The notes under the pieces are model-generated. The model ran no database searches and was not told the DNA's origin. It saw only the letters and a program-made list of their open reading frames with translations. A DNA stretch of 36,167 nucleotides from a virus. Taxonomy: Duplodnaviria; Heunggongvirae; Uroviricota; Caudoviricetes. Of the stretch, positions 14,233-36,167 are shown in pieces (the stretch's first letter is position 1; every line of letters begins with the position of its first letter). The DNA lies in IMG/VR virus record IMGVR_UViG_2657245430_000003. One strand, written 5' to 3'. The translations under genes were made by a program, and so were the position numbers.

Positions 14233-14558
14233 AAACCTTCCGCTGGAAAGTGAAACCCGGTATGGATGTGGCTTCGGCCCCTTCTGTAAGAAAGGTGCGC
14301 TTTGGTGATGGCTATTCCCAGCGAGCGCCTGCCGGGCTGAATGCCAACCTGAAAACGTACAGCGTGACGCTTTCTGTCCCCCGTGAGGAGGCCATGGTAC
14401 TGGAGTCGTTTCTGGAAGAGCACGGGGGCTGGAAAGCCTTTCTGTGGACGCCGCCTTATGAGTGGCGGCAGATAAAGGTGACCTGCGCAAAATGGTCGTC
14501 GCGGGTCAGTATGCTGCGTGTTGAGTTCAGCGCAGAGTTTGAACAGGTGGTGAACTGA
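14229..14558 (+). CDS. M: tail tip protein M
   Basis: 109 aa, MKTFRWKVKPGMDVASAPSVRKVRFGDGYSQRAP.... Confidence 0.93.
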   Translation: MKTFRWKVKPGMDVASAPSVRKVRFGDGYSQRAPAGLNANLKTYSVTLSVPREEAMVLESFLEEHGGWKAFLWTPPYEWRQIKVTCAKWSSRVSMLRVEFSAEFEQVVN

Positions 14559-15256: not shown

Positions 15257-15261
15257 ATCCC

Positions 15262-16005
15262 ATGACAGAGACAGAATCAGCGATTCTGGCGCACGCCCGG
15301 CGATGTGCTCCAGCGGAGTCGTGCGGCTTCGTGGTAAGAACGCCGGAGGGGGAAAGATATTTCCCCTGCGTGAATATCTCCGGTGAGCCGGAGGCGTATT
15401 TCCGTATGTCGCCGGAAGACTGGCTGCAGGCAGAGATGCAGGGTGAGATTGTGGCACTGGTCCACAGCCACCCCGGTGGTCTGCCCTGGCTGAGTGAGGC
15501 CGACCGGCGGCTGCAGGTGCAGAGTGATTTGCCGTGGTGGCTGGTCTGCCGGGGGGCGATTCACAAGTTCCGCTGTGTGCCACATCTTACCGGGCGGCGC
15601 TTTGAGCACGGGGTGACGGACTGTTACACGCTGTTCCGGGATGCTTACCATCTGGCGGGGATTGAGATGCCGGATTTTCATCGTGAGGATGACTGGTGGC
15701 GTCACGGTCAGAATCTCTATCTGGATAATCTGGAGGCCACAGGGCTGTATCAGGTGCCGTTGTCAGCGGCGCAGCCGGGCGATGTGCTGCTGTGCTGTTT
15801 TGGTTCATCGGTGCCGAATCATGCCGCCATTTACTGTGGTGACGGCGAGCTGCTGCACCATATTCCTGAACAACTGAGCAAACGAGAGAGGTATACCGAC
15901 AAATGGCAGCGACGCACACACTCCCTCTGGCGTCACCGGGCATGGCACGCATCTGCCTTTACGGGGATTTGCAACGATTTGGCCGCCGCATCGACCTTCG
16001 TGTGA
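15262..16005 (+). CDS. K: tail tip assembly protein K (MPN/JAMM and NlpC/P60 domains)
   Basis: 247-aa ORF with an HSHPGG...SEAD JAMM-like motif and a C-terminal Cys/His region. The C-terminus matches lambda K. Confidence 0.9.
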   Translation: MTETESAILAHARRCAPAESCGFVVRTPEGERYFPCVNISGEPEAYFRMSPEDWLQAEMQGEIVALVHSHPGGLPWLSEADRRLQVQSDLPWWLVCRGAIHKFRCVPHLTGRRFEHGVTDCYTLFRDAYHLAGIEMPDFHREDDWWRHGQNLYLDNLEATGLYQVPLSAAQPGDVLLCCFGSSVPNHAAIYCGDGELLHHIPEQLSKRERYTDKWQRRTHSLWRHRAWHASAFTGICNDLAAASTFV

Positions 16006-16253
16006 AAACGGGTGCCGAAGCCATCCGGGCGATGGCCACACAGCTCCCTGCGTTTCGTCAGAAGCTGAGCGACGGCTGGTATCAGGTGCGTATTGCCGGG
16101 CAGGATGTTAGCACGTCCGGATTAACGGCACAGTTACATGAGGCTCTGCCTGACGGCGCTGTGATTCATATTGTTCCCAGAGTCGCCGGGGCCAAGTCAG
16201 GTGGTGTATTCCAGATTGTCCTGGGAGCAGCCGCCATTGCCGGATCATTCTTT
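15903..16253 (+). CDS. I: tail tip assembly protein I, 3'-truncated at the N at 16254
   Basis: MAATHTLPLASPGMARICLYGDLQRFGRRIDLRVKTGAEAIRAMATQ..., overlapping the K 3' end as in lambda. The reading frame is cut by the scaffold join at 16254. Confidence 0.8.
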
Positions 16254-16254
16254 N

Positions 16255-16944
16255 ATTCCACAGGAAACACATCATGAGACGACACGCCTCACTCAGTCAG
16301 CCCAGGTGGTGCTCTGGGAAATCGATCTGACAGAGGTCGGTGGTGAACGTTATTTTTTCTGTAATGAGCAGAACGAAAAAGGTGAGCCGGTTACCTGGCA
16401 GGGGCGGCAGTATCAGGCATACCCCATTCAGGGGACGGGATTTGAACTGAACGGCAAGGGCAGTGCTGCCCGTCCGACACTGACGGTTTCTAACCTGCAC
16501 GGAATGGTCACCGGGATGGCGGAAGACCTGCAGAGTCTGGTCGGCGGAACGGTGGTCAGGCGTAAGGTTTACGCCCGTTTTCTGGATGCGGTGAACTTCG
16601 TCAACGGAAACAGCGACGCCGATCCGGAACAGGAGGTGATCAGCCGCTGGCGCATCGAGCAGTGCAGCGAACTGAGCGCGGTCAGTGCCTCTTTTGTGCT
16701 GGCCACACCAACGGAGACGGATGGCGCGGTTTTCCCGGGGCGTATCATGCTGGCGAATACCTGTATGTGGACTTACCGTTCTGATGAGTGTGGTTACACG
16801 GGCAGGGCAGTGGCTGACGAGTTCGACAAACCAACGACGGATATCCGGAAGGACAAATGCAGCAAGTGTATGCGCGGGTGTGAGTTGCGCAACAATACCG
16901 GTAATTTCGGCGGTTTCCTTTCCATCAATAAACTTTCTCAGTAA
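16255..16944 (+). CDS. L: tail tip protein L, second diverged copy, 5'-partial (contig starts near codon 5)
   Basis: ..QETHHETTRLTQSAQVVLWEIDLTEVGGERYFFCNEQ..., with scattered substitutions relative to the first L at 14558-15256. Begins immediately after the N at 16254. Confidence 0.8.
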   Translation: MPQETHHETTRLTQSAQVVLWEIDLTEVGGERYFFCNEQNEKGEPVTWQGRQYQAYPIQGTGFELNGKGSAARPTLTVSNLHGMVTGMAEDLQSLVGGTVVRRKVYARFLDAVNFVNGNSDADPEQEVISRWRIEQCSELSAVSASFVLATPTETDGAVFPGRIMLANTCMWTYRSDECGYTGRAVADEFDKPTTDIRKDKCSKCMRGCELRNNTGNFGGFLSINKLSQ

Positions 16945-16948
16945 ATCC

Positions 16949-17692
16949 ATGACACAGACAGAATCAGCGATTCTGGCGCACGCCCGGCGATGTGCGCCAG
17001 CGGAGTCGTGTGGCTTCGTGGTAAGAACGCCGGAGGGAGACAGGTATCTTCCCAGCGAGAATATCTCCGGTGAGCCGGAGGAACGGTTCCGGATGGCTCC
17101 GGAGGACTGGCTGCGGGCACAAATGCAGGGTGAGATTGTGGCGCTGGTCCACAGTCATCCCGGTGGTCTGCCCTGGCTGAGTGAGGCTGACCGGCGGCTG
17201 CAGGTGCAGAGTGATTTGCCGTGGTGGCTGGTCTGCCGGGGGGCGATTCACAAGTTCCGCTGTGTGCCACATCTTACCGGGCGGCGCTTTGAGCACGGGG
17301 TGACGGACTGTTACACGCTGTTCCGGGATGCTTACCATCTGGCGGGGATTGAGATGCCGGATTTTCATCGTGAGGATGACTGGTGGCGTCACGGTCAGAA
17401 TCTCTATCTGGATAATCTGGAGGCCACAGGGCTGTATCAGGTGCCGTTGTCAGCGGCGCAGCCGGGCGATGTGCTGCTGTGCTGTTTTGGTTCATCGGTG
17501 CCGAATCATGCCGCCATTTACTGTGGTGACGGCGAGCTGCTGCACCATATTCCTGAACAACTGAGCAAACGAGAGAGGTATACCGACAAATGGCAGCGAC
17601 GCACACACTCCCTCTGGCGTCACCGGGCATGGCACGCATCTGCCTTTACGGGGATTTGCAACGATTTGGCCGCCGCATCGACCTTCGTGTGA
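16949..17692 (+). CDS. K: tail tip assembly protein K, second copy
   Basis: MTQTESAILAHARRCAPAESCGFVVRTPEGDRYLPSENISGEPEERF..., 247 aa, start ATG at 16949. Confidence 0.85.
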   Translation: MTQTESAILAHARRCAPAESCGFVVRTPEGDRYLPSENISGEPEERFRMAPEDWLRAQMQGEIVALVHSHPGGLPWLSEADRRLQVQSDLPWWLVCRGAIHKFRCVPHLTGRRFEHGVTDCYTLFRDAYHLAGIEMPDFHREDDWWRHGQNLYLDNLEATGLYQVPLSAAQPGDVLLCCFGSSVPNHAAIYCGDGELLHHIPEQLSKRERYTDKWQRRTHSLWRHRAWHASAFTGICNDLAAASTFV

Positions 17693-18261
17693 AAACGGGT
17701 GCCGAAGCCATCCGGGCGATGGCCACACAGCTCCCTGCGTTTCGTCAGAAGCTGAGCGACGGCTGGTATCAGGTGCGTATTGCCGGGCAGGATGTTAGCA
17801 CGTCCGGATTAACGGCACAGTTACATGAGGCTCTGCCTGACGGCGCTGTGATTCATATTGTTCCCAGAGTCGCCGGGGCCAAGTCAGGTGGTGTATTCCA
17901 GATTGTCCTGGGAGCAGCCGCCATTGCCGGATCATTCTTTACCGCCGGAGCCACCCTTGCAGCATGGGGGGCTGCCATTGGTGCCGGTGGTATGACCGGC
18001 ATTCTGTTTTCTCTCGGTGCCAGTATGGTGCTCGGCGGTGTGGCTCAGATGCTGGCACCGAAAGCCAGAACTCCCCGCACACAGACAACGGATAACGGTA
18101 AGCAGAACACCTATTTCTCCTCACTGGATAACATGGTTGCCCAGGGCAATGTTATGCCTGTTCTGTATGGTGAAATGCGCGTGGGGTCACGTGTGGTATC
18201 TCAGGAGATCAGCACGGCAGACGAAGGGGACGGTGGTCAGGTTGTGGTGATTGGTCGCTGA
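17590..18261 (+). CDS. I: tail tip assembly protein I, second copy, full length
   Basis: 223 aa, the lambda gpI length. Gly/Ala-rich hydrophobic centre and conserved C-terminus ...VVSQEISTADEGDGGQVVVIGR. Confidence 0.88.
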   Translation: MAATHTLPLASPGMARICLYGDLQRFGRRIDLRVKTGAEAIRAMATQLPAFRQKLSDGWYQVRIAGQDVSTSGLTAQLHEALPDGAVIHIVPRVAGAKSGGVFQIVLGAAAIAGSFFTAGATLAAWGAAIGAGGMTGILFSLGASMVLGGVAQMLAPKARTPRTQTTDNGKQNTYFSSLDNMVAQGNVMPVLYGEMRVGSRVVSQEISTADEGDGGQVVVIGR

Positions 18262-18321
18262 TGCAAAATGTTTTATGTGAAATCGCCTCCGGGCGGTTTT
18301 ATCGTTTATGGAGCATGACGA

Positions 18322-18722
18322 ATGGGTAAAGGCAGCAGTAAGGGGCATACCCCGCGCGAAGCGAAGGACAACCTGAAGTCCACGCAGCTGCTGAGTGTGA
18401 TCGATGCCATCAGCGAAGGGCCGGTTGAAGGTCCGGTGGATGGATTAAAAAGCGTGCTGCTGAACAGTACGCCGGTGCTGGACAGTGAGGGGAATACCAA
18501 CATCTCCGGCGTCACGGTGGTGTTCCGGGCAGGTGAGCAGGAGCAGTCACCGCCGGAGGGATTTGAATCCTCCGGCTCCGAGACGGTGCTGGGTACGGAA
18601 GTGAAATATGACACGCCGATCACCCGGACCATCACGTCGGCAAACATTGACCGACTGCGTTTTACCTTCGGTGTACAGGCACTGGTGGAAACCACCTCAA
18701 AGGGAGACAGGAATCCGTCTGA
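18322..18722 (+). CDS. J: tail tip / host-specificity protein J, N-terminal fragment, truncated at the N at 18723
   Basis: [48 protein letters not shown].... After the N the frame continues into K sequence (EIVALVHSHPGG), which is a join artefact. Confidence 0.8.
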
Positions 18723-18723
18723 N

Positions 18724-19284
18724 GAGATTGTGGCGCTGGTCCACAGTCATCCCGGTGGTCTGCCCTGGCTGAGTGAGGCCGACCGGCGGCTGCAGGTGCA
18801 GAGTGATTTGCCGTGGTGGCTGGTCTGCCGGGGGGCGATTCACAAGTTCCGCTGTGTGCCGCATCTCACCGGGCGGCGCTTTGAGCACGGGGTGACGGAC
18901 TGTTACACGCTGTTCCGGGATGCTTATCATCTGGCAGGGATTGAGATGCCGGATTTTCATCGCGGGGATGACTGGTGGCGTAACGGTCAGAATCTCTATC
19001 TTGACAATATGGAGGTGACGGGTTTTTACCGTGTCGCACTGACAGAGGCACAGCCGGGCGATGTGCTGCTGTGCTGTTTTGGTTCATCGGTGCCGAATCA
19101 TGCCGCCATTTACTGTGGTGACGGCGAGCTGCTGCACCATATTCCTGAACAACTGAGCAAACGAGAGAGGTATACCGACAAATGGCAGCGACGCACACAC
19201 TCCCTCTGGCGTCACCGGGCATGGCACGCATCTGCCTTTACGGGGATTTGCAACGATTTGGCCGCCGCATCGACCTTCGTGTGA
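18724..19284 (+). CDS. K: tail tip assembly protein K, 5'-truncated fragment (residues about 62-247)
   Basis: EIVALVHSHPGGLPWLSEADRRLQVQSDLPWWLVCRG... to the stop at 19284. Starts right after the N. Confidence 0.8.
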   Translation, partial: EIVALVHSHPGGLPWLSEADRRLQVQSDLPWWLVCRGAIHKFRCVPHLTGRRFEHGVTDCYTLFRDAYHLAGIEMPDFHRGDDWWRNGQNLYLDNMEVTGFYRVALTEAQPGDVLLCCFGSSVPNHAAIYCGDGELLHHIPEQLSKRERYTDKWQRRTHSLWRHRAWHASAFTGICNDLAAASTFV

Positions 19285-19853
19285 AAACGGGTGCCGAAGC
19301 CATCCGGGCGATGGCCACACAGCTCCCTGCGTTTCGTCAGAAGCTGAGCGACGGCTGGTATCAGGTGCGTATTGCCGGGCAGGATGTTAGCACGTCCGGA
19401 TTAACGGCACAGTTACATGAGGCTCTGCCTGACGGCGCTGTGATTCATATTGTTCCCAGAGTCGCCGGGGCCAAGTCAGGTGGTGTATTCCAGATTGTCC
19501 TGGGAGCAGCCGCCATTGCCGGATCATTCTTTACCGCCGGAGCCACCCTTGCAGCATGGGGGGCTGCCATTGGTGCCGGTGGTATGACCGGCATTCTGTT
19601 TTCTCTCGGTGCCAGTATGGTGCTCGGCGGTGTGGCTCAGATGCTGGCACCGAAAGCCAGAACTCCCCGTACACAGACAACGGATAACGGTAAGCAGAAC
19701 ACCTATTTCTCCTCACTGGATAACATGGTTGCCCAGGGCAATGTTATGCCTGTTCTGTATGGTGAAATGCGCGTGGGGTCACGTGTGGTATCTCAGGAGA
19801 TCAGCACGGCAGACGAAGGGGACGGTGGTCAGGTTGTGGTGATTGGTCGCTGA
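19182..19853 (+). CDS. I: tail tip assembly protein I, third copy
   Basis: 223 aa, almost identical to the copy at 17590-18261. Confidence 0.85.
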   Translation: MAATHTLPLASPGMARICLYGDLQRFGRRIDLRVKTGAEAIRAMATQLPAFRQKLSDGWYQVRIAGQDVSTSGLTAQLHEALPDGAVIHIVPRVAGAKSGGVFQIVLGAAAIAGSFFTAGATLAAWGAAIGAGGMTGILFSLGASMVLGGVAQMLAPKARTPRTQTTDNGKQNTYFSSLDNMVAQGNVMPVLYGEMRVGSRVVSQEISTADEGDGGQVVVIGR

Positions 19854-19913
19854 TGCAAAATGTTTTATGTGAAATCGCCTCCGGGCGGTTTTATCGTTTA
19901 TGGAGCATGACGA

Positions 19914-21286
19914 ATGGGTAAAGGCAGCAGTAAGGGGCATACCCCGCGCGAAGCGAAGGACAACCTGAAGTCCACGCAGCTGCTGAGTGTGATCGATGCC
20001 ATCAGCGAAGGGCCGGTTGAAGGTCCGGTGGATGGATTAAAAAGCGTGCTGCTGAACAGTACGCCGGTGCTGGACAGTGAGGGGAATACCAACATCTCCG
20101 GCGTCACGGTGGTGTTCCGGGCAGGTGAGCAGGAGCAGTCACCGCCGGAGGGATTTGAATCCTCCGGCTCCGAGACGGTGCTGGGTACGGAAGTGAAATA
20201 TGACACGCCGATCACCCGGACCATCACGTCGGCAAACATTGACCGACTGCGTTTTACCTTCGGTGTACAGGCACTGGTGGAAACCACCTCAAAGGGAGAC
20301 AGGAATCCGTCTGAAGTTCGCCTGCTGGTTCAGATACAGCGTAACGGTGGCTGGGTGACGGAAAAAGACATCACCATTAAGGGCAAAACCACCTCGCAGT
20401 ATCTGGCCTCGGTGGTGGTGGATAACCTGCCGCCGCGCCCGTTTAATATCCGGATGCGCAGAATGACGCCGGACAGCACCACAGACCAGCTGCAGAACAA
20501 AACGCTCTGGTCGTCATACACCGAAATCATCGATGTGAAACAGTGCTACCCGAACACGGCACTGGTCGGCGTACAGGTGGATTCGGAGCAGTTCGGCAGC
20601 CAGCAGGTGAGCCGTAATTATCATCTTCGCGGGCGCATTCTGCAGGTGCCGTCGAACTATAACCCGCAGACGCGGCAATACAGCGGTATCTGGGACGGAA
20701 CGCTTAAGCCAGCATACAGCAACAACATGGCCTGGTGTCTGTGGGATATGCTGACCCATCCGCGCTATGGCATGGGGAAACGTCTTGGTGCGGCAGATGT
20801 GGATAAATGGGCGCTGTATGTCATCGGCCAGTACTGTGACCAGTCGGTGCCGGACGGCTTTGGCAGCACGGAGCCGCGCATCACCTGTAATGCCTGGCTG
20901 ACCACACAGCGCAAGGCGTGGGATGTGCTCAGTGATTTCTGCTCGGCGATGCGCTGTATGCCGGTATGGAACGGGCAGACGCTGACGTTCGTGCAGGACC
21001 GACAGTCGGATAAGGTGTGGGCCTATAACCGCAGTAATGTGGTGATGCCGGATGATGGCGCGCCGTTCCGCTACAGTTTCAGCGCCCTGAAAGACCGCCA
21101 TAATGCCGTTGAGGTGAACTGGATTGACCCGGATAACGGCTGGGAGACGGCGACAGAGCTTGTGGAGGATACGCAGGCCATTGCCCGTTACGGTCGTAAT
21201 GTCACGAAGATGGATGCCTTTGGCTGTACCAGCCGGGGGCAGGCACACCGCGCCGGGCTGTGGCTGATTAAAACGGAACTGCTGGA
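19914..21286 (+). CDS. J: J protein, N-terminal about 458 aa, truncated at the N-run 21287-21297
   Basis: Lambda-like J N-terminus through ...[11 protein letters not shown], then 11 Ns. Confidence 0.8.
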
Positions 21287-21297
21287 NNNNNNNNNNN

Positions 21298-21821
21298 TGC
21301 CCTGGCTGAGTGAGGCCGACCGGCGGCTGCAGGTGCAGAGTGATTTGCCGTGGTGGCTGGTCTGCCGGGGGGCGATTCACAAGTTCCGCTGTGTGCCGCA
21401 TCTCACCGGGCGGCGCTTTGAGCACGGGGTGACGGACTGTTACACGCTGTTCCGGGATGCTTATCATCTGGCAGGGATTGAGATGCCGGATTTTCATCGC
21501 GGGGATGACTGGTGGCGTAACGGTCAGAATCTCTATCTTGACAATATGGAGGTGACGGGTTTTTACCGTGTCGCACTGACAGAGGCACAGCCGGGCGATG
21601 TGCTGCTGTGCTGTTTTGGTTCATCGGTGCCGAATCATGCCGCCATTTACTGCGGTGACGGCGGGCTGCTGCACCATATTCCTGAACAACTGAGCAAACG
21701 AGAGAGGTACACCGACAAATGGCAGCGACGCACACACTCCCTCTGGCGTCACCGGGCATGGCGCGCATCTGCCTTTACGGGGATTTACAACGATTTGGTC
21801 GCCGCATCGACCTTCGTGTGA
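21298..21821 (+). CDS. K: tail tip assembly protein K, 5'-truncated fragment
   Basis: (L)PWLSEADRRLQVQ... to the stop. The C-terminus has RASAFTGIYNDLVAASTFV, as in lambda, unlike the other copies (HASAFTGICNDLAAASTFV). Confidence 0.8.
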
Positions 21822-22360
21822 AAACGGGGGCTGAAGCCATCCGGGCACTGGCCACACAGCTCCCGGCGTTTCGTCAGAAACTGAGTGACGGCTGGTATCA
21901 GGTGCGCATTGCCGGGCGTGATGCAGGTGAAACCGAATTGTCTGCCCGTCTTAATGAGCCGCTGGCAAATGGTGCAGTGATCCACATAGTACCGCGTCTG
22001 GTGGGAGCTAAAAGTGGCGGTGTGTTTCAGGCGGTGCTGGGGGCGGCTGTTATGGCGGTTGCTATATGGATGCCGGGGGTAGGAATTATGGCGAGTAATC
22101 TGCTGTTTTCTCTCGGTGCCAGTATGACGCTTGGCGGTGTTGCACAGATGCTGGCACCGAAAGCCAGAACTCCCCGTACACAGACAACGGATAACGGTAA
22201 GCAGAACACCTATTTCTCCTCACTGGATAACATGGTTGCCCAGGGCAATGTTCTGCCCGTTCTGTACGGTGAAATGCGCGTGGGGTCACGTGTGGTTTCT
22301 CAGGAGATCAGCACGGCAGACGAAGGGGACGGTGGTCAGGTTGTGGTGATTGGTCGCTGA
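21719..22360 (+). CDS. I: tail tip assembly protein I, variant 213-aa allele
   Basis: N- and C-termini conserved. The central segment (AGRDAGETELSARLNEPLANGAVIHIVPRLVGAKSGGVFQAVLGAAVMAVAIWMPGVGIMASNLL) differs from the other I copies, a mosaic pattern. Confidence 0.85.
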   Translation: MAATHTLPLASPGMARICLYGDLQRFGRRIDLRVKTGAEAIRALATQLPAFRQKLSDGWYQVRIAGRDAGETELSARLNEPLANGAVIHIVPRLVGAKSGGVFQAVLGAAVMAVAIWMPGVGIMASNLLFSLGASMTLGGVAQMLAPKARTPRTQTTDNGKQNTYFSSLDNMVAQGNVLPVLYGEMRVGSRVVSQEISTADEGDGGQVVVIGR

Positions 22361-22420: not shown

Positions 22421-24985
22421 ATGGGTAAAGGCAGCAGTAAGGGGCATACCCCGCGCGAAGCGAAGGACAACCTGAAATCCACGCAGTTGCTGAGTGTGAT
22501 TGATGCCATCAGCGAAGGGCCGGTTGACGGTCCGGTGGATGGATTAAAAAGCGTGCTGCTGAACGGTACGCCGGTCCTGGACAGCGAGGGGAAGACAAAC
22601 TTTTCCGGTGTTACGGTGGTGTTCCGTGCAGGTGAGCAGGAGCAGACACCGCCGGAGGGTTTTGAATCCTCCGGCTCCGAGACGGTGCTGGGTACGGAAG
22701 TGAAATATGACACGCCGATCACCCGGACCATCACGTCGGCAAACATCGACCGTCTGCGCCTGACCTTCGGTGTGCAGGCACTGGTGGAAACCACCTCAAA
22801 GGGTGACCGGAATCCGTCGGAAGTCCGCCTGCTGGTTCAGATACAGCGTAACGGTGGCTGGGTGACGGAAAAAGACATCACCATTAAGGGCAAAACCACC
22901 TCGCAGTATCTGGCCTCGGTGGTGGTGGATAACCTGCCGCCGCGCCCGTTTAATATCCGGATGCGCAGAATGACGCCGGACAGCACCACAGACCAGCTGC
23001 AGAACAAAACGCTCTGGTCGTCATACACCGAAATCATCGATGTGAAACAGTGCTACCCGAACACGGCGCTGGTCGGCGTGCAGGTGGATTCAGAGCAGTT
23101 CGGTAACCAGCAGGTGAGTCGCAATTATCATCTTCGCGGGCGCATTCTGCAGGTGCCGTCGAACTATAACCCGCAGACGCGGCAATACAGCGGTATCTGG
23201 GACGGAACGCTTAAGCCAGCATACAGCAACAACATGGCCTGGTGTCTGTGGGACATGCTCACTCATCCGCGCTACGGCATGGGGAAACGTCTTGGTGCGG
23301 CAGATGTGGATAAATGGGCGCTGTATGTCATCGGCCAGTACTGCGACCAGTCAGTGACGGACGGATTTGGCGGCACGGAGCCGCGCATCACCTGTAACTC
23401 TTACCTGACCACACAGCGTAAGGCGTGGGATGTTCTCAGTGATTTCTGCTCGGCGATGCGCTGTATGCCGGTATGGAACGGACAGATGCTGACGTTCGTG
23501 CAGGACCGACCGTCGGATAAGGTGTGGACCTATAACCGCAGTAATGTGGTGATGCCGGATGATGGCGCGCCGTTCCGCTACAGTTTCAGCGCCCTGAAAG
23601 ACCGCCATAATGCCGTTGAGGTGAACTGGATTGACCCAGATAACGGCTGGGAGACGGCGACAGAGCTTGTGGAGGATACGCAGGCCATTGCCCGTTACGG
23701 TCGTAATGTCACGAAGATGGATGCCTTTGGCTGTACCAGCCGGGGGCAGGCACACCGAGCCGGGCTGTGGCTGATTAAAACGGAACTGCTGGAAACGCAG
23801 ACCGTGGACTTCAGCGTGGGCGCAGAAGGGCTTCGCCATGTACCGGGTGATGTCATTGAAATCTGCGATGATGATTATGCCGGTATCAGCACCGGTGGTC
23901 GCGTACTGGCGGTGAACAGCCAGACCCGGACGCTGACGCTCGACCGTGAAATCACGCTGCCGTCCTCCGGTACCACGCTGATAAGCCTGGTTGACGGAAG
24001 TGGCAATCCGGTCAGCGTGGAGGTCCAGTCCGTCACCGACGGCGTGAAGGTGAAAGTGAGCCGGGTTCCTGACGGCGTTGCAGAATACAGCGTGTGGGGG
24101 CTGAAGCTGCCGACGCTGCGCCAGCGTCTGTTCCGCTGCGTGAGTATCCGTGAGAACGACGACGGCACGTATGCCATCACCGCCGTGCAGCATGTGCCGG
24201 AAAAAGAGGCCATCGTGGATAACGGGGCACACTTTGACGGTGACCGGCGCGGCACGGTGAATGGTGTCACGCCGCCAGCGGTGCAGCATCTGACCGCCGA
24301 AGTCACCGCAGACAGCGGGGAATATCAGGTGCTGGCGCGATGGGACACGCCGAAGGTGGTGAAGGGTGTGAGCTTCCTGCTTCGCCTGACCGTGGCAGCG
24401 GACGACGGCAGTGAGCGGCTGGTCAGCACAGCCAGGACGACGGAAACCACATACCGCTTCAGGCAGCTGGCGCTGGGGAATTACAGTCTGACAGTCCGGG
24501 CGGTAAATGCCCGGGGGCAGCAGGGCGATCCGGCGTCGGTATCGTTCCGGATTGCGGCACCGGCAGCGCCTGTCACTATTGAACTGATACCGGGGTATTT
24601 TCAGATAACGGCGGTCCCGAAACTGGCTGTATATGACCCGACGGTGCAGTTTGAGTTCTGGTTTTCGGAAAAGCGGATTGCGGATATCAGGCAGGTTGAA
24701 ACCAGCGCCCGCTATCTTGGCACGGCGCTGTACTGGATAGCCGCCAGTATCAATATCAGGCCGGGCCATGATTATTATTTTTACGTTCGCAGTGTGAACA
24801 CCGTTGGCAAATCGGCATTTGTGGAGGCCATCGGTCGGGCGAGCGATGATGCAGAAGGTTATCTGAATTTTTATAAAGGGTTGATCAATAAAACGCATCT
24901 CGGCAAGGAGTTGTGGACGCAGATTGATAACGGTCAGCTTGCGCCGGACCTGACTGAAATCAGGACGTCCATTACGAATGTCAGC
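22421..24985 (+). CDS. J: J protein, N-terminal about 855 aa, truncated at the N at 24986
   Basis: Longest continuous J segment. Ends ...[12 protein letters not shown] at the join. Confidence 0.85.
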
Positions 24986-24986
24986 N

Positions 24987-26424
24987 GGCTGGGAGACGGC
25001 GACAGAGCTTGTGGAGGATACGCAGGCCATTGTCCGTTACGGTCGTAACGTCACGAAGATGGATGCCTTTGGCTGTACCAGCCGGGGGCAGGCACACCGC
25101 GCCGGGCTGTGGCTGATTAAAACGGAACTGCTGGAGACGCAGACCGTGGATTTCAGCGTGGGTGCTGAAGGGCTTCGTCATGTACCGGGCGATGTCATTG
25201 AAATCTGCGATGATGACTATGCCGGTATCCGCACCGGCGGGCGCGTGCTGGCGGTGAACAGCCAGACCCGGACGCTGACGCTCGACCGTGAAATCACGCT
25301 GCCGTCCTCCGGTACCACGCTGATAAGCCTGGTTGACGGAAGTGGCAATCCGGTCAGCGTGGAGGTCCAGTCCGTCACCGACGGCGTGAAGGTGAAAGTG
25401 AGCCGGGTTCCTGACGGCGTTGCAGAATACAGCGTGTGGGGGCTGAAGCTGCCGACGCTGCACCAGCGATTGTTCCGCTGCGTGAGTATCCGTGAGAACG
25501 ACGACGGCACGTATGCCATCACCGCCGTGCAGCATGTGCCGGAAAAAGAAGCCATCGTGGATAACGGGGCGCACTTTGACGGCGACCAGAGCGGCACGGT
25601 GAATGGTGTCACGCCGCCAGCGGTGCAGCACCTGACTGCCGAAGTCACCGCAGACAGCGGGGAATATCAGGTGCTGGCGCGATGGGACACGCCGAAGGTG
25701 GTGAAGGGTGTGAGCTTCCTGCTTCGCCTGACCGTGGCAGCGGACGACGGCAGTGAGCGGCTGGTCAGCACAGCCAGGACGACGGAAACCACATACCGCT
25801 TCAGGCAGCTGGCGCTGGGGAATTACAGTCTGACAGTCCGGGCGGTAAATGCCCGGGGGCAGCAGGGCGATCCGGCGTCGGTATCGTTCCGGATTGCCGC
25901 ACCGGCAGCGCTGTCGCGGATTGAGCTGACGCCGGGCTATTTTCAGATAACCGCCACGCCGCATCTTGCGGTTTATGATCCGACGGTACAGTTTGAGTTC
26001 TGGTTCTCGGAAAAGCGGATTGCGGATATCAGGCAGGTTGAAACCACAGCACGCTATCTTGGCACGGCGCTGTACTGGATAGCCGCCAGTATCAATATCA
26101 AACCGGGCCATGATTATTACTTTTATATCCGCAGTGTGAACACCGTTGGCAAATCGGCATTCGTGGAGGCTGTTGGTCAGCCGAGTGATGATGCATCCGG
26201 TTATCTGGATTTTTTCAAAGGCGAGATAGGGAAAACCCATCTGGCTCAGGAGCTGTGGACGCAGATTGATAACGGTCAGCTTGCGCCTGACCTGGCTGAA
26301 ATCAGGACGTCCATTACGGATGTCAGCAATGAAATCACGCAGACCGTCAATAAGAAACTGGAAGACCAGAGTGCGGCAATTCAGCAGATACAGAAGGTTC
26401 AGGTTGATACAAATAATAACCTGA
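24987..26424 (+). CDS. J: J protein internal fragment (lambda J about residue 405 to 880), bounded by Ns on both sides
   Basis: [29 protein letters not shown] ... [11 protein letters not shown]. It re-covers J sequence already present at 23640-24985, with substitutions. Confidence 0.75.
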
Positions 26425-26425
26425 N

Positions 26426-27902
26426 CAGCACGGCCCGGACGACGGAAACCACTTACCGCTTCACACAACTGGCGCTGGGGAACTACAGGCTGACAGTCCG
26501 GGCAGTAAATGCGTGGGGGCAGCAGGGCGATCCGGCGTCGGTATCGTTCCGGATTGCGGCACCGGCAGCGCCTGTCACTATTGAACTGATACCGGGGTAT
26601 TTTCAGATAACGGCGGTCCCGAAACTGGCTGTATATGACCCGACGGTGCAGTTTGAGTTCTGGTTTTCGGAAAAGCGGATTGCGGATATCAGGCAGGTTG
26701 AAACCACAGCACGCTATCTTGGCACGGCGCTGTACTGGATAGCCGCCAGTATCAATATCAAACCGGGCCATGATTATTACTTTTATATCCGCAGTGTGAA
26801 CACCGTTGGCAAATCGGCATTCGTGGAGGCTGTTGGTCAGCCGAGTGATGATGCATCCGGTTATCTGGATTTTTTCAAAGGCGAGATAGGGAAAACCCAT
26901 CTGGCTCAGGAGCTGTGGACGCAGATTGATAACGGTCAGCTTGCGCCGGACCTGACTGAAATCAGGACGTCCATTACGAATGTCAGCAATGAAATCACGC
27001 AAACCGTCAATAAAAAACTGGAAAATCAGAGTGCTGCAATCCAGCAGATACAGAAAGTTCAGGTTGATACAAATAATAACCTGAACAGCATGTGGGCTGT
27101 GAAGCTGCAACAGATGAAGGACGGACGCCTTTATATTGCGGGTATCGGTGCCGGTATTGAGAATACGCCAGCAGGAATGCAGAGTCAGGTGCTGCTGGCG
27201 GCAGACAGGATTGCGATGATTAATCCTGCGAATGGCAACACAAAGCCGATGTTTGTTGGTCAGGGCGATCAGATATTCATGAACGACGTGTTCCTGAAAT
27301 GCCTGACGGCTCCGACCATTACCAGCGGCGGTAATCCTCCGGCATTTTCCCTGACACCTGGCGGACGGCTGACGGCGAAAAATGCCGATATCAGCGGTAA
27401 CGTGAACGCGAACTCCGGGACGCTCAACAACGTCACGATTAATAAGAACTGTCGGGTTCTGGGAAAATTGTCCGCGAACCAGATTGAAGGCGATCTCGTT
27501 AAAACAGTGGGCAAACCTTTCCCACGGGACTCCCGGGCACCGGAGAGGTGGCCATCAGGGACCATTACCGTCAGGGTTTATGACGATCAGCCGTTTGATC
27601 GGCAAATTGTTATTCCCGCGGTGGCGTTTCGCGGTGCTAAACATGAGCGGAAGAATAACAATATTTATTCGTCATGCCGCCTGATAGTGAAGAAAAACGG
27701 TGCTGAAATTTATAACCGAACGACCCTGGATAATACGCTGATATATACGGGTGTTATTGATATGCCTGCCGGTCACGGTCACATGACGCTGGAGTTTTCT
27801 GTATCGGCATGGCTGGTAAATGGCTGGTATCCCACAGCAAGTATCAGCGATTTGCTGGTTGTGGTGATGAAGAAAGCCACTGCAGGCATCACGATTAGCT
27901 GA
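26426..27902 (+). CDS. J: J protein C-terminal fragment (receptor-binding region, variant 1) ending at the native stop
   Basis: [33 protein letters not shown]... to ...[14 protein letters not shown]. The C-terminal roughly 150 aa differ from the variant at 29191-31040 and from lambda. Confidence 0.8.
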
Positions 27903-27969: not shown

Positions 27970-28569
27970 ATGCGTAAAGTTTGTGCAGCCATTTTGTCCG
28001 CAGCCATTTGCCTGGCCGTATCCGGTGCGCCTGCATGGGCGTCTGAACATCAGTCCACGCTGAGCGCCGGGTATCTTCAGACCCATACTGATATGCCAGG
28101 CAGCGATGACCTGAAGGGCATTAACGTGAAATACCGTTATGAGTTTACGGACACGCTGGGGCTGATTACGTCATTCAGTTATGCCAACGCTGAAGATGAG
28201 CAAAAAACGCATTACAGCGATACCCGCTGGCATGAGGATTCCGTGCGTAACCGCTGGTTCAGCGTGATGGCGGGGCCGTCTGTGCGCGTGAATGAATGGT
28301 TCAGCGCGTATGCGATGGCGGGCGTGGCTTACAGCCGTGTGTCGACCTTCTCCGGGGATTATCTCCGCGTAACTGACAACAAGGGGAAAACGCACGATGT
28401 GCTGACCGGAAGTGATGGCGGTCGCCACAGCAACACGTCTCTGGCGTGGGGGGCTGGCGTGCAGTTTAACCCGACCGAATCCGTGGCCATTGACCTTGCT
28501 TATGAAGGTTCCGGCAGTGGTGACTGGCGCACTGACGGTTTCATCGTGGGTGTCGGTTATAAATTCTGA
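27970..28569 (+). CDS. lom: Lom-family (Ail/Lom/OmpX) outer-membrane beta-barrel protein
   Basis: 199 aa with a signal peptide (MRKVCAAILSAAICLAVSGAPAWA). The C-terminus ...AYEGSGSGDWRTDGFIVGVGYKF is identical to the lambda Lom C-terminus from memory. Position after J is as in lambda. Confidence 0.9.
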   Translation: MRKVCAAILSAAICLAVSGAPAWASEHQSTLSAGYLQTHTDMPGSDDLKGINVKYRYEFTDTLGLITSFSYANAEDEQKTHYSDTRWHEDSVRNRWFSVMAGPSVRVNEWFSAYAMAGVAYSRVSTFSGDYLRVTDNKGKTHDVLTGSDGGRHSNTSLAWGAGVQFNPTESVAIDLAYEGSGSGDWRTDGFIVGVGYKF

Positions 28570-28633: not shown

Positions 28634-28960
28634 ATGGCAGTAAAGATTTCAGGTGTACTGAAAGATGGGGCGGGTAAACCTGTCGTAAATTGTGCGATTG
28701 AACTGCGGGCCAGAAGAACCAGTCCGACCGTTGTGGCACACGTTGTTGCCACTTGCGTGACGGACAATAACGGTGCTTATGTGATTGAGGCTGAGCCGGG
28801 GTATTACGAGGTTGCGCTTCACTGTAACGGCTGGCAGCCAACCCGTGTCGGGGATATTGATGTGGCACCGACTGATGCACCGGGGACACTGAACGCGTTT
28901 CTGAATGCACCAAAGGATGGTGATTTACGTCCGGAGGTGATGAAGTGTCAGCGCCAGTGA
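28634..28960 (+). CDS. short protein with a side-tail-fibre (Stf) N-terminal-like start, 108 aa, not followed by a fibre shaft
   Basis: [12 protein letters not shown](A/T)GKPV.NC.I.L.A.R matches the Stf N-terminus at 31692. It diverges in the middle and only ends with a different reading at the C-terminus (RPEVMKCQRQ*), the DNA match to stf breaking off after CGTCCGGAGG. An IS21-family transposase start lies 87 nt downstream. Confidence 0.6.
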   Translation: MAVKISGVLKDGAGKPVVNCAIELRARRTSPTVVAHVVATCVTDNNGAYVIEAEPGYYEVALHCNGWQPTRVGDIDVAPTDAPGTLNAFLNAPKDGDLRPEVMKCQRQ

Positions 28961-29046
28961 TATAAGACGGTAATTCGCCATTTGGATTGTCCGCTCCACC
29001 CAACATGTTGTTTCCTTAAGGTTCTCACACCAGAAAGGACATCAAC

Positions 29047-29189
29047 ATGCTGAGCAGAGAGGACTTTTACATGATAAAGCAAATGCGCCAGCAGGGCGCG
29101 TACATCGTCGATATTGCGACTCAGATTGGTTGCTCTGAACGGACGGTCAGACGCTACCTCAAATACCCTGAACCGCCAGCCAGAAAGAC
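29047..29189 (+). mobile_element. IS21-family transposase (IstA) 5' fragment, cut by the N at 29190
   Basis: MLSREDFYMIKQMRQQGAYIVDIATQIGCSERTVRRYLKYPEPPARK, the helix-turn-helix N-terminus typical of IS21-family IstA. The IS left end probably lies between 28961 and 29046 but I cannot place the terminal inverted repeat. Confidence 0.7.
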
Positions 29190-29190: not shown

Positions 29191-31040
29191 CTGACGGCGT
29201 TGCAGAATACAGCGTGTGGGGGCTGAAGCTGCCGACGCTGCGCCAGCGTCTGTTCCGCTGCGTGAGTATCCGTGAGAACGACGACGGCACGTATGCCATC
29301 ACCGCCGTGCAGCATGTGCCGGAAAAAGAGGCCATCGTGGATAACGGGGCACACTTTGACGGTGACCGGCGCGGCACGGTGAATGGTGTCACGCCGCCAG
29401 CGGTGCAGCATCTGACCGCCGAAGTCACCGCAGACAGCGGGGAATATCAGGTGCTGGCGCGATGGGACACGCCGAAGGTGGTGAAGGGTGTGAGCTTCCT
29501 GCTTCGCCTGACCGTGGCAGCGGACGACGGCAGTGAGCGGCTGGTCAGCACAGCCAGGACGACGGAAACCACATACCGCTTCAGGCAGCTGGCGCTGGGG
29601 AATTACAGTCTGACAGTCCGGGCGGTAAATGCCCGGGGGCAGCAGGGCGATCCGGCGTCGGTATCGTTCCGGATTGCGGCACCGGCAGCGCCTGTCACTA
29701 TTGAACTGATACCGGGGTATTTTCAGATAACGGCGGTCCCGAAACTGGCTGTATATGACCCGACGGTGCAGTTTGAGTTCTGGTTTTCGGAAAAGCGGAT
29801 TGCGGATATCAGGCAGGTTGAAACCAGCGCCCGCTATCTTGGCACGGCGCTGTACTGGATAGCCGCCAGTATCAATATCAGGCCGGGCCATGATTATTAT
29901 TTTTACGTTCGCAGTGTGAACACCGTTGGCAAATCGGCATTTGTGGAGGCCATCGGTCGGGCGAGCGATGATGCAGAAGGTTATCTGAATTTTTATAAAG
30001 GGTTGATCAATAAAACGCATCTCGGCAAGGAGTTGTGGACGCAGATTGATAACGGTCAGCTTGCGCCTGACCTGGCTGAAATCAGGACGTCCATTACGGA
30101 TGTCAGCAATGAAATCACGCAGACCGTCAATAAGAAACTGGAAGACCAGAGTGCGGCAATTCAGCAGATACAGAAGGTTCAGGTTGATACAAATAATAAC
30201 CTGAACAGCATGTGGGCTGTGAAGCTGCAGCAGATGCAGGACGGACGCCTTTATATCGCGGGTATTGGTGCCGGTATTGAGAACACCCCTGACGGCATGC
30301 AGAGTCAGGTGCTGCTGGCGGCGGACAGGATTGCGATGGTTAATCCTGCGAATGGCAACACAAAACCGATGTTTGTTGGTCAGGGCGATCAGATATTCAT
30401 GAACGACGTGTTCCTGAAACGCCTGACGGCCCCCACCATTACCAGCGGTGGAAATCCATCGGCATTTTCCCTGACTCCGGACGGAAAGCTGACCGCTAAA
30501 AATGCGGATATCAGTGGCAGTGTGAATGCGAACGCCGGGACGCTCAACAATGTCACGGTAAATGAAAACTGTACGATTAAGGGCATGCTGGAGGCGACTC
30601 AGGTCAGAGGTGACTTCGTTAAAGCTGTATCCAAATCATTTCCGAAACAGGCTGGTACGTGGGGTAACACGGAAACACCAAACGGGACGGTTACAGTCAC
30701 CATAAGCGATGATCATAACTTTGACCGCCAGATTATTATTCCGCCCATTATTTTTAACGGTATAGCGTATGACGATCCGGGGAGCGGAAATAACCCAGGA
30801 GGCACGCGATACACGGGTTATGGTTTTGAAGTTCGCAAAAACGGCGTATTAATCGCATCCAGAGAAACTAAAGGTGCCATTCCCGGTAGTTACAGTGCAG
30901 TTATTGATATGCCTAGTGGTGGTGGTAGCGTCACTCTGGAGTTTAAGATTTTCCAGAAAGGCAATCAGGGGGCAGGCAATATCACCGACTGTACGGTGAT
31001 TGTGACCAAAAAAGCGGCTTCCGGCATCAGTATTCGTTGA
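29191..31040 (+). CDS. J: J protein C-terminal fragment (lambda J about residue 545 to end; receptor-binding region, variant 2)
   Basis: ..[29 protein letters not shown]... to ...[15 protein letters not shown]. The C-terminal domain differs from variant 1 (26426-27902) and from lambda. Confidence 0.85.
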
Positions 31041-31110: not shown

Positions 31111-31626
31111 ATGCGTAAAGTTTGTGCAGCCATTTTGTCCGCAGCCATTTGCCTGGCCGTATCCGGTGCGCCTGCATGGGCGTCTGAACATCAGTCCACG
31201 CTGAGCGCGGGGTATCTTCATGCCCGGACCAACGTTCCCGGCAGTGATGATCTGAACGGGATTAACGTGAAATACCGTTATGAGTTTACGGATACGCTGG
31301 GGCTGGTGACGTCATTCAGCTATGCAGGAGACAAGAATCGCCAGCTGACCCGTTACAGCGATACCCGCTGGCATGAAGATTCCGTGCGTAACCGCTGGTT
31401 CAGCGTGATGGCGGGGCCGTCTGTGCGCGTGAATGAATGGTTCAGCGCGTATGCGATGGCGGGTGTGGCTTACAGCCGTGTGTCGACTTTTTCCGGGGAT
31501 TATATCCGCGTAACTGACAATAAGGGGAAAACGCACGATGTGCTGACCGGAAGTGATGACGGTCGCCACAGCAACACGTCTCTGGCGCACTGACGGTTTC
31601 ATCGTGGGTGTCGGTTATAAATTCTG
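31111..31626 (+). pseudogene. lom: lom, disrupted by an 83-bp internal deletion causing frameshift and a premature stop at 31593
   Basis: Matches the intact lom at 27970-28569 up to ...HSNTSLA, then jumps to the last 37 bp. The missing 83 bp are flanked in the intact copy by the direct repeat CTGGCG. Confidence 0.8.
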
Positions 31627-31680: not shown

Positions 31681-31691
31681 GTGGGGTGAAT

Positions 31692-34600
31692 ATGGCAGTA
31701 AAGATTTCAGGTGTACTGAAAGACGGCACAGGAAAACCGGTACAGAACTGCACAATCCAGCTGAAAGCAAAACGTAACAGCACCACGGTGGTGGTGAACA
31801 CGCTGGCCTCAGAAAATCCGGATGAAGCCGGGCGTTACAGCATGGACGTTGAGTACGGTCAGTACAGCGTTATTCTGTTGGTGGAAGGATTCCCGCCGTC
31901 ACATGCCGGGACCATCACCGTGTATGAAGATTCCCGACCCGGTACGCTGAATGATTTTCTCGGTGCCATGACGGAGGATGATGCCCGTCCGGAGGCACTG
32001 CGCCGTTTTGAGCTGATGGTGGAAGAGGTGGCGCGTAACGCGTCCGCGGTGGCACAGAACACGGCAGCCGCGAAGAAATCAGCCAGCGATGCCAGCACAT
32101 CAGCCCGTGAGGCGGCAACCCATGCGACTGATGCTGCAGATTCAGCACGTGCAGCCAGCACGTCAGCCGGACAGGCCGCTTCGTCGGCTCAGTCAGCGTC
32201 TTCCAGCGCAGGAACGGCATCAACAAAGGCCACTGAAGCCTCAAAAAGTGCTGCCGCTGCAGAGTCCTCAAAAAGCGCGGCGGCTACCAGTGCCGGTGCG
32301 GCGAAAACGTTAGAAACGAATGCGGCAGCGTCACAACAATCAGCAGCCACTTCTGCATCCACCGCGACCACGAAAGCGTCAGAAGCTGCCACCTCAGCCC
32401 GGGATGCGTCGGCTTCAAAAGAGGCGGCAAAATCATCAGAAACGAACGCATCATCAAGCGCCAGTAGCGCAGCTTCCTCGGCGACGGCGGCTGCAAATTC
32501 TGCGAAGGCGGCCAAAACGTCCGAGACGAACGCCAGGTCTTCTGAAACGGCAGCGGGACAGAGTGCCTCAGCTGCGGCAGGCTCAAAAACAGCGGCTGCG
32601 TCGTCTGCCAGCGCCGCGTCAACAAGTGCCGGGCAGGCCTCAGCCAGTGCCACCGCCGCCGGAAAATCGGCAGAAAGCGCCGCATCATCCGCTTCAACAG
32701 CCACAACGAAGGCTGGCGAAGCCACTGAGCAGGCCACGGCAGCAGCGAGGTCAGCTTCCGCAGCGAAGACATCCGAAACGAACGCGAAAGCGTCGGAAAC
32801 CCGTGCAGAATCCTCAAAAACGGCTGCCGCATCGTCCGCCAGTTCGGCGGCGTCATCGGCATCATCGGCGTCTGCTTCAAAAGATGAGGCGACCAGACAG
32901 GCGTCAGCAGCGAAGGGCAGCGCCACGACGGCATCCACGAAGGCGACAGAGGCTGCTGGTAGTGCGACGGCAGCAGCTCAGAGCAAAAGTACGGCGGAAT
33001 CTGCAGCAACGCGCGCTGAGACAGCGGCAAAACGGGCAGAGGATATTGCATCCGCCGTGGCGCTTGAGGATGCGAGCACGACGAAAAAGGGGATAGTACA
33101 GCTCAGTAGTGCGACTAACAGCACTTCCGAGTCACTGGCGGCAACACCAAAAGCCGTTAAGGCCGCGTATGACCTGGCTAACGGGAAATACACCGCACAG
33201 GATGCAACGACAGCACAGAAAGGGATAATCCAGCTAAGCAGCGCGACCAACAGCACGTCTGAAACGCTGGCGGCAACGCCAAAGGCAGTAAAAGCAGCCA
33301 ATGACAATGCTGAGAAACGTCTGCAGAAAGATCAGAACGGTGCGGATATCCCTGGCAAAGACACCTTTACGAAAAATATTGGTGCCTGCCGTGCCTTCGG
33401 TGGGTCAGTAAGCACAACAACAGGAAACTGGACGACTGCACAGTTTATCGAGTGGCTGGATTCTCAGGGAGCATTTAACCATCCATACTGGATGTGCAAG
33501 GGTTCCTGGTCTTATGGCAATAATAAAATCATTACTGATACTGGCTGCGGTAATATTCATCTCGCCGGAGCTGTCATTGAAGTAATGGGGATAAAGTCAG
33601 CGATGACGATCCGCATTACCACTCCGACCACATCCAGCGGTGGCGGAACAACCAACGCCCAGTTTACCTATATTAATCACGGAACAGATTATTCACCTGG
33701 CTGGCGAAGGGACTATAACTCCAGAAATAAGCCAACGGCATCAGAGATCGGGGCGCTACCGTCAGGTGGAACAGCAGTATCATCAGTTAATCTGGCTTCA
33801 AAAGGTCGGGTAGCCGCGCTGACAGACAATACGCAGGGGGCAGCAGGTCTTGAGTTATACGAGGTGTATAACAACGGATATCCAACAGCGTATGGAAATA
33901 TCATTCACCTGAAAGGGATGACAGCCGTTGGCGAAGGTGAGTTACTCATCGGCTGGAGTGGTACAAGCGGTGCTCATGCTCCGGCATTTATTCGTTCACG
34001 ACGGGATACGACCGACGCAAACTGGTCGCCGTGGGCGCAGCTTTACACCTCGGCTCATCCTCCTGCAGAGTTTTATCCAGTCGGTGCACCAATCCCGTGG
34101 CCATCAGATACCGTTCCGTCTGGTTATGCCCTGATGCAGGGGCAGACTTTTGACAAATCTGCTTACCCGAAACTTGCAGCCGCTTATCCGTCAGGCGTGA
34201 TCCCTGATATGCGTGGCTGGACGATTAAGGGCAAGCCCGCCAGTGGTCGTGCCGTATTGTCTCAGGAACAGGATGGCATTAAATCGCACACCCACAGCGC
34301 CAGCGCATCCAGTACGGATTTGGGGACGAAAACCACATCGTCGTTTGATTACGGCACTAAATCCACGAATAACACCGGGGCGCATACGCACAGTCTGAGC
34401 GGCTCTACAAGTTCAGCTGGGGCCCACCAACATAGTCAGACTGGGCCCAGAACGAATAGCGGGAGTCAACCTACTGGAATGTTTCCGGCAGGGAGTACTC
34501 AAGTTAGCGGGACTAATCAGGTTGGTATCAGTGGCTCATTAACCAGTGGCACCTCCCAATGGGTAGGTAAATCATCTTCAGAAGGAAACCATACACACTC

Positions 34601-34775
34601 ACTGTCCGGCACAGCAGCATCTGCGGGTGCACACGCGCATACTGTCGGTATTGGTGCTCATACGCACTCTGTTGCGATTGGTTCACATGGACACACCATC
34701 ACCGTTAACGCTGCTGGTAACGCGGAAAACACCGTCAAAAACATCGCATTTAACTATATTGTGAGGCTCGCATAA
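31692..34775 (+). CDS. stf: side tail fibre protein Stf (mosaic)
   Basis: 1027 aa from the ATG at 31692. Lambda-like N-terminus [36 protein letters not shown], a long Ala/Ser/Thr low-complexity shaft, and a C-terminus with GAHTHSLSG / [15 protein letters not shown] His-rich repeats ending ...[18 protein letters not shown] as in lambda Stf. Confidence 0.9.
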
Positions 34776-35356
34776 TGGCATTCAGAATGAGTGAACAAGC
34801 ACGGACCATAAAAATTTATAACCTGCTGGCCGGAACTAATGAATTTATTGGTGAAGGTGACGCATATATTCCGCCTCATACAGGTCTGCCTGCAAACAGT
34901 ACCGATATTGCACCGCCAGATATTCCGGCTGGTTTCGTGGCTGTTTTCAACAGTGATGAGTCATCGTGGCATCTCGTTGAAGATCATCGGGGTAAAACGG
35001 TTTATGACGTGGCTTCCGGCGACGCGTTATTTATTTCTGAACTCGGCTCATTACCGGAAAATGTCACCTGGTTATCCCCGGAAGGGGAGTTTCAGAAGTG
35101 GAACGGCACAGCCTGGGTGAAGGATACGGAAGCAGAAAAACTGTTCCGGATCCGGGAGGCGGAAGAAACAAAAAACAGCCTGATGCAGGTAGCCAGTGAG
35201 CATATAGCGCCGCTTCAGGATGCTGTGGATCTGGAGATCGCAACGGAGAAAGAAACCTTGTTGCTGGAAGCTTGGAAAAAGTATCGGGTGTTGCTGAACC
35301 GTGTTGATACATCAACTGCACCGGATATTGAATGGCCAGTAGCACCTATAGGGTAA
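34775..35356 (+). CDS. tfa: tail fibre assembly protein Tfa
   Basis: 193 aa, [51 protein letters not shown].... Start overlaps the stf stop (TAATG). Confidence 0.9.
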
Positions 35357-35440
35357 ATTCGTAATGATTACCTAAATACGTTATTCTTTTGTTAAAAAAG
35401 TGATTTTGCTATAGGTAGGGAGTATGTTCTTGGATTAAGA

Positions 35441-35473
35441 ATAAAAAATCGCCATGAAAGAGCTTCATGGCGA
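35441..35473 (-). terminator. candidate minus-strand intrinsic terminator
   Basis: Perfect 9-bp inverted repeat CGCCATGAA-AGAGC-TTCATGGCG at 35450-35472. On the minus strand it is followed by ATTTTTTAT. There is no T-run on the plus strand. Confidence 0.45.
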
Positions 35474-36105
35474 GTACATAAACGTACAAAATGTGATGAA
35501 AGTAGAGTGGCGTAAGCCACTATATTAAGATATGACAATAGCGAAGAAAAGTAAATAACATTTTATGGACGTTTAATTGTTAATTATAAAAACTAGAGTG
35601 CCCGATATTGTTTATCTTGCTTTAAAATAATGTACTCAAACCAAATTTTTGAGCTAAAAGCTCAAATAATATAAATGCAATAATAATGTTTAATAAGACA
35701 ATTAGCTTGCTTTGTATTTTCATTTCGGAATACTGTTAAGTAACTTTGATGACCCTAACAATAGATCGGAATTTTCTTAGAGTCAATGGTCACTGTTTTT
35801 GCTTGCAAAGCAAATGTTTTGGTGGTTATAAGTCGTCTTAATATAGTCACGCATGCAACTTGTTCCATGCGGAGATTAAAGATTGGAATATAACGCGAAG
35901 ATGGAATTAAATTACATTTGCAATAATTAATTTATTATTACTCAATAATTACCGATATTATTATTGTAAATTAATCATTAGAATGCAAAAAGAAATGTAA
36001 CGGCAAAATAAGAGGACGATAGCTGAGAAAAAAGCGTGCTTTCCCAATCTGGGGCAAATCACGTCTGAATGACACCTGAAAACAGGTGGTAGCCTCAAGA
36101 AGGCT

Positions 36106-36167
36106 GGTGATGCTGCCAACTTACTGATTTAGTGTATGATGGTGTTTTTGAGGTGCTCCAGTGGCTT
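36106..36167 (+). mobile_element. IS1 left end (terminal inverted repeat and first nucleotides of insA), truncated by the window edge
   Basis: GGTGATGCTGCCAACTTACTGATTTAGTGTATGATGGTGTTTTTGAGGTGCTCCAGTGGCTT matches the IS1 left terminus from memory. The GTG at 36161 would be the insA start. Confidence 0.8.

Follow-up and report, generated by a model that had tools for sequence, protein, structure and literature searches.

Organization of the window

The window, i.e. the whole stretch of 36,167 nucleotides analysed here, begins with a lambda-like late operon (positions 1–16253) comprising the terminase, portal, and head genes, the tape measure gene H (11671–14232), M, L, K, and the start of I. 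Beyond position 16253, parts of L, K, I, and J are repeated several times. N characters are present at positions 16254, 18723, 21287–21297, 24986, 26425, and 29190, and the window was cut at these positions into pieces A to G. The pieces were placed on the single L-K-I-J-lom-stf module of a prophage annotated in E. coli CFSAN029787 (locus L001). Pieces B, C, D, E, and F correspond to positions 14986–17384, 15824–18356, 15861–19548, 18208–19645, and 18987–21505 of this reference, respectively, and piece G to position 18632 onwards. All six N joins are thus backward jumps on the reference module, and the mapped pieces overlap. The pieces flanking a join show end-to-start homology, with an identity of only 92–98%. 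The combination of backward jumps and this level of flank homology indicates that a scaffolder chained repeat contigs of different prophages and wrote the negative gap as a single N.

The single N at position 26425 (E/F) is located inside an apparent 974-aa J ORF; the last 659 bases of piece E and the first 659 bases of piece F share only 93.5% identity and are therefore derived from different J genes. At the F/G join, also a single N at position 29190, piece F ends in an IS21-like element within stf and piece G restarts in the middle of J, which corresponds to a step from 21505 back to 18632 on the reference.

Four distinct versions of the K/I region, 93–98% identical to one another, occur in pieces A to D (15262–22360). 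The middle part of J was found in three versions: pieces D and G are 99.7% identical there, and pieces E and F each differ. These numbers of versions imply that at least three or four lambdoid prophages in the source genome share this tail module. Since no more than two J 3' ends are present in the window, at least one further J tip is located elsewhere or has been collapsed in the assembly.

Several ORFs cross N joins and are artefacts (16171–16944, 18322–19284, 19914–21821, 22421–25048, and 24978–27902); the ORF at 18322–19284, for example, fuses the N-terminus of J to the C-terminus of K. The most useful outcome of this analysis is the warning that the region from 16.2 to 29.2 kb is a scaffold pile-up of repeat contigs, whose ORFs, apparent duplications, and fusions should not be taken as biology.

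Two gene J 3' ends with divergent tips

Both J 3' ends are encoded on the plus strand and terminate in a variable segment, which we delimit from the residues NVT to the stop codon. Variant 1 (27429–27902; 157 aa) is of the type found in O157 prophages and in the chimera '1A2', and variant 2 (30549–31040; 163 aa) is of the type found in phage 434. An earlier note on this DNA, made from the sequence alone, had described two different J C-termini that are nearly identical up to NNVT and then diverge. This description was borne out, and the positions given in that note were essentially right, being placed about 11 nt late (the NVT codons begin at 27429 and 30549).

In a BLASTP comparison, the last 491 residues of the two J ends were 74% identical overall, with a near-perfect match up to ...NADISG(N/S)VNAN(S/A)GTLNNVT and a weak one beyond. 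MAFFT alignment of the region from NVT to the end gave 66 identical positions out of 166 (40%), compared with 74% in the 43 columns just upstream of NVT; a longer upstream stretch was about 90% identical as judged by eye. The same pattern was seen at the DNA level in 60-nt windows, where identity is 82–100% up to positions 27445/30565, 38–65% across 27446–27898/30566–31036, and again 98–100% at the start of lom. Conserved sequence borders the divergent tip on both sides, which makes it a discrete cassette of about 0.45 kb.

Upstream of variant 1, the conserved J shaft (26426–27428, plus strand) belongs to the continuous part of piece F. PF24421 is matched in part here, at the end of the first Ig-like domain, and is followed by the second Ig-like domain (PF24489) and the tail-tip fibre domain (PF09327). 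At the DNA level, this shaft shows 90.9% identity to 29546–30572. The ORF in which variant 1 resides (24978–27902; 974 aa) reads in frame through the Ns at 24986 and 26425 and repeats about 220 J residues. These features mark the 974-aa ORF as an assembly chimera, in which only 26426–27902 is continuous sequence. Shortly before the tip, the shaft of the variant 1 J carries a Cys codon at 27300–27302 (FLKCLTAPT). The same residue is Arg in the J of CFSAN029787, in variant 2 (FLKRLTAPT), and in the J of the O157 phage Stx2a_1447 (FLKRLFAVS), and the Cys may reflect either a sequencing error or a substitution private to this J.

Upstream of variant 2, the conserved middle and shaft of J (29191–30548, plus strand; reference positions 18632–20013 of L001) form the start of piece G. 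The N-terminal 855 codons of this J gene were found in piece D (22421–24985, plus strand). Pieces D and G overlap by 917 bases (24069–24985 and the first 917 bases of G) with three mismatches (99.7% identity), and merging them through this overlap yields an intact J of 1,165 aa. The merged J is colinear with the J of the second CFSAN029787 prophage (L005), which is integrated at potAB/pepT and has a J tip identical to variant 2 at 161 of 170 residues.

Domain family

In a Pfam search, the receptor-binding domain profile PF12421 (Ig_GpJ_C; gathering cut-off, 26.2 bits) matched variant 1 with 126.3 bits over profile positions 2–135 of 135 and variant 2 with 89.1 bits over positions 1–134. By profile, both segments are C-terminal receptor-binding domains of J. 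The J rebuilt from pieces D and G contains PF24801, PF13550, PF24421, PF24489, PF09327, and PF12421, all above their cut-offs; these correspond to an FNIII-A domain, the Phage-tail_3 hub, a pair of Ig-like domains, the tail-tip fibre domain, and the receptor-binding domain at the C-terminus. In the J end of piece F, the four from PF24421 to PF12421 were found. The position of J in the gene order, after K and I and before lom and stf, is colinear with that in annotated prophages and in phages 434 and lambda.

Searches of the PDB with the last 200 residues, which cover the end of the shaft and the domain, gave matches with E values between 1e-46 and 1e-81. A8 gpJ (9wca) was matched with E = 1e-81 by variant 1 and 5e-56 by variant 2, and lambda J (8xcj, 8iyk) with E = 8e-59 and 3e-47. 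In lambda, the J tip is an Ig-like module on the trimeric central fibre; four loops at its bottom enter trimeric LamB, and binding to LamB makes the domain spread and the tail tip open (PMC11101478). The two domains in the window presumably adopt the same trimeric Ig-like fold, with loops that would enter a trimeric porin as in lambda J. Single-sequence AlphaFold2 models of both domains were all-beta and of low confidence (pLDDT 42.3 and 46.9), which makes them too poor for placing the variable positions on receptor-contact loops.

The lambda J domain itself (residues ~975–1132; PDB 8iyk, and 8xcj/8xck with LamB) shares with both variants the PF12421 family, the upstream shaft, and a short C-terminal motif, V.V.KK...GI. 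Its identity to variants 1 and 2 is only 41 and 37%, respectively, and neither variant shows close similarity to the tip of lambda J, the receptor of which is LamB. From these low identities, neither variant is of the LamB type, in agreement with the earlier note.

Relatives of the two tips

Variant 1 is identical in protein sequence (157/157) to the J domain encoded by the prophage next to yehI/btsSR in CFSAN029787, and its DNA is 99.8% identical to sequences in eight complete genomes, including that of this enteroinvasive (EIEC) strain. Related DNA was found in 3,378 of 5,426 complete E. coli genomes (62%). Tips of O157:H7 Stx2a phages, PPompW prophages, and vB_EcoS-640R1 are 91–94% identical to variant 1. 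The J domain of Stx2a_1447 (BAT32439.1), for instance, is of equal length, without indels, and identical at 144 of 157 residues (92%). Four of the 13 substitutions (among 157 residues) that distinguish variant 1 from the O157/1A2 type cluster in one stretch, HERKNNNIY in variant 1 versus HEREHTDIY (RKNNN for REHTD), which is rich in indels and variable in length across all J types. This stretch could be a contact loop in variant 1, and its alteration might change specificity.

The 1A2 gpJ (PMC11338833) belongs to the same type, as the readable frames of its DNA translate to the O157 type in two stretches of 109 and 21 residues; because the sequence was taken from recoded supplement DNA that was machine-read with dropped bases, its identity to variant 1 is approximate. 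Among solved structures, A8 gpJ (PDB 9wca/9wcb, 'A8 gpJ 713') is the best match for both variants, with 61% identity to variant 1 and 43% to variant 2. It represents a domain type of its own: residues are missing after FPR, and an insertion of 5 residues (NNQQSYWY) is present. A search of the available literature library found no publication behind the two PDB entries. To the J domain of phage 434, variant 1 is only 40% identical.

Variant 2, in contrast, is 94% identical to the phage 434 J (UMO75286.1, OL657226) from NVT to the end (154 of 163 residues, nine substitutions) and shares with it characteristic insertions and the same J-lom-stf gene order. The two systems differ in the length of J (1,137 aa in 434 and 1,165 aa in the rebuilt variant 2 J) and in the truncation of the lom gene downstream of variant 2. 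Identities of 96–99% were found to the tips of phages Evi, cdtI, mEp460_ev081, and ev099 and of many Stx1/Stx2c phages, with a value of 99.4% for phage Evi and for several complete genomes. Variant 2-related DNA is present in 2,113 of the 5,426 complete genomes (39%).

Genes downstream of J

Both J ends are followed by a lom gene on the plus strand, encoding an Ail/Lom outer-membrane protein. The copy downstream of variant 1 (27970–28569; 199 aa) is of full length and covers positions 1–199 of 199 in PF06316. The copy downstream of variant 2 (31111–31593; 160 aa) covers positions 1–159 of 199 and has been truncated by the loss of about 83 bp that correspond to 28436–28520 of the intact copy.

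The last 244 bases of piece F (28946–29189) represent the left end of an IS21-like element of the ISEc62 family (88.5% identity). The match extends from upstream of istA into this gene, and the element interrupts stf downstream of the variant 1 J and lom. The variant 1 prophage may therefore be defective or lack a functional side tail fibre; alternatively, the IS repeat may be no more than the point at which the contig ends. In piece G, a long stretch in the middle of the side tail fibre gene (31686–34775; 1,029 aa), at about 32.0–33.1 kb, is of low complexity and rich in Ala, Ser, and Thr (GC, 0.62; AT skew, 0.35), and a tail fibre assembly gene (34775–35356) follows. Compared over its full length, piece G reaches only about 95% identity to the closest loci in complete genomes.

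Probable explanation: two exchangeable J tip alleles from separate prophages

We consider it most probable, at roughly 0.78, that the window is a draft scaffold of contigs from separate prophages and that it carries two exchangeable J tip alleles, both of which would be of the OmpC type by homology. The contigs would be short-read contigs of at least three lambdoid prophages from one E. coli (or EIEC-like) genome, chained through the L-K-I-J-lom repeats. Two of them bear the 3' end of gene J, each of which would specify the trimeric, Ig-like domain with which the tip of the central tail fibre binds the receptor.

Starting from the observed sequences and scaffold structure, we infer a recombination history in which the two tips are alternative alleles of one swappable cassette of about 0.45 kb. 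The conserved J shaft on the left and the conserved J end and lom on the right would allow swapping by homologous recombination between prophages. The presence of two very different tips in one genome fits the known mosaic exchange of cassettes through conserved flanks. On the virion of its own prophage, each tip would bind trimeric OmpC rather than LamB, and the conserved shaft would pass on an opening signal that leads to opening of the tail tip, as in lambda J on LamB. The two tips are ordinary mosaic cassette variation: neither domain is new, and both are common, annotated, and close to J tips that have already been studied. The finding carries little biological weight, given that exchange of J tip cassettes among lambdoid prophages is well documented.

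Predicted receptor

Replacement of lambda J by the J of phage 434 redirects the phage to OmpC, the 434 receptor (PMC3509688, PMC11101478). In the work of Brödel et al. (Nature 2024, PMC11338833), J tips from natural prophages were joined to lambda J at residue 964, which gave the chimeras A8 and 1A2; the divergence point of the two tips in the window, at lambda/434 J residue 975, is a few residues past this fusion point. Lambda particles with the 1A2 tip enter via the OmpC of EDL933, among other alleles, and not via that of K-12, as shown in a lamB ompC double-deletion host with plasmid-borne OmpC variants, whereas the A8 chimera uses the OmpC of both K-12 and EDL933. Together, A8 and 1A2 cover 21 of 23 OmpC variants (PMC11338833). 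Phage phi330, the J tip of which is 35–40% identical to those of lambda and 434, also requires OmpC (PMC12502783).

From the observed domain family and nearest relatives, we infer that both tips probably use the same receptor protein, OmpC. This assignment is based on their 92–94% identity to characterised domains. The earlier note had instead proposed that the two prophages use different outer-membrane receptors. That proposal holds relative to lambda and its LamB receptor, and is not supported between the two prophages, since the nearest studied relatives of both tips use OmpC. Each tip is close to a known J with a defined receptor (94% to 434 for variant 2 and 92% to the O157/1A2 type for variant 1).

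The strongest competing explanation, which we regard as unlikely, is that the two domains target two different outer-membrane proteins, e.g. OmpC in one case and FhuA, BtuB, OmpF, or LamB in the other. The two domains are indeed only 40% identical, a single J mutation was enough for a new receptor in experiments with phi21, and the hypervariable stretch of variant 1 is altered relative to the 1A2/O157 type. Against this, the closest characterised relatives on both sides use OmpC, and so does A8, in spite of its identity of 61% to variant 1 and 43% to variant 2; the requirement of phi330 for OmpC points in the same direction. The OmpC-using types 434, A8, and 1A2/O157 are 40–61% identical to one another, judging by the alignment identities given above. 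Together with the case of phi330, this range indicates that a different receptor cannot be predicted from low tip identity alone.

With OmpC as the probable common receptor, variants 1 and 2 may still differ in the OmpC alleles or in the OmpC surface that they use. It is a tentative suggestion, and a rather unlikely one, that the variant 1 sub-allele, having RKNNN for REHTD, would recognise another set of OmpC alleles or even another porin. If such differences were real, the co-resident prophages would divide the OmpC allele space rather than being redundant. For host-range prediction or the engineering of lambda particles, both tips can provisionally be labelled as OmpC-type, with variant 1 as a slightly different allele. 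A 2026 preprint on receptor prediction deals with J tips of Drexlerviridae and not with lambdoid J tips.

Apparent adjacency of the two J ends

The alternative that a single prophage carries both J ends next to each other, whether duplicated in tandem or as two tips between which it could switch, is highly improbable. The ends lie 3.1 kb apart in the window, on the same strand, and each is followed by lom, as such an arrangement would have it; the N at 29190, however, stands exactly at the discontinuity, piece F ends inside the IS21-like element, and the five other N joins have the same backward-jump pattern. When a 901-nt query across this N was compared with the 5,426 complete E. coli genomes, each half matched well on its own, but no place covered at least 80% of the query, i.e. 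the junction was found in none of these genomes. A true tandem duplication was ruled out, as it is at odds with the N joins, with the colinearity, and with the fact that no complete genome searched has the junction. An invertible or shufflon-like tip switch was likewise ruled out, since no inverted repeats linking the two J ends were found in the window and both tips are on the same strand.

The spacing of about 3 kb between the two J ends is a scaffold join and not biology. In CFSAN029787, a variant 1 J (at yehI/btsSR) and a variant 2-type J (at potAB/pepT) reside in two prophages about 370 kb apart. The assignment of the two J ends to different prophages, which the earlier note had assumed, is thus supported. 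The further explanation that one or both divergent tips are themselves an assembly chimera or a sequencing error, which might be suspected from the collapsed repeat in a draft assembly and from the chimeric ORF further upstream of variant 1, is scarcely credible, as variant 1 matches eight complete genomes (157/157 in protein, 99.8% in DNA), variant 2 matches phage Evi and several complete genomes at 99.4%, and no N is located inside either domain. Assembly chimerism accounts for the adjacency of the tips, not for their sequences, which match finished genomes.

Both ends of the window are low in GC (0.40 at 1–1000 and 0.36 at 35400–36167) and may be cargo or junction DNA of the prophage. The right end is free of ORFs of at least 60 aa and contains a 25-nt imperfect inverted repeat (35506–35530/35836–35860).
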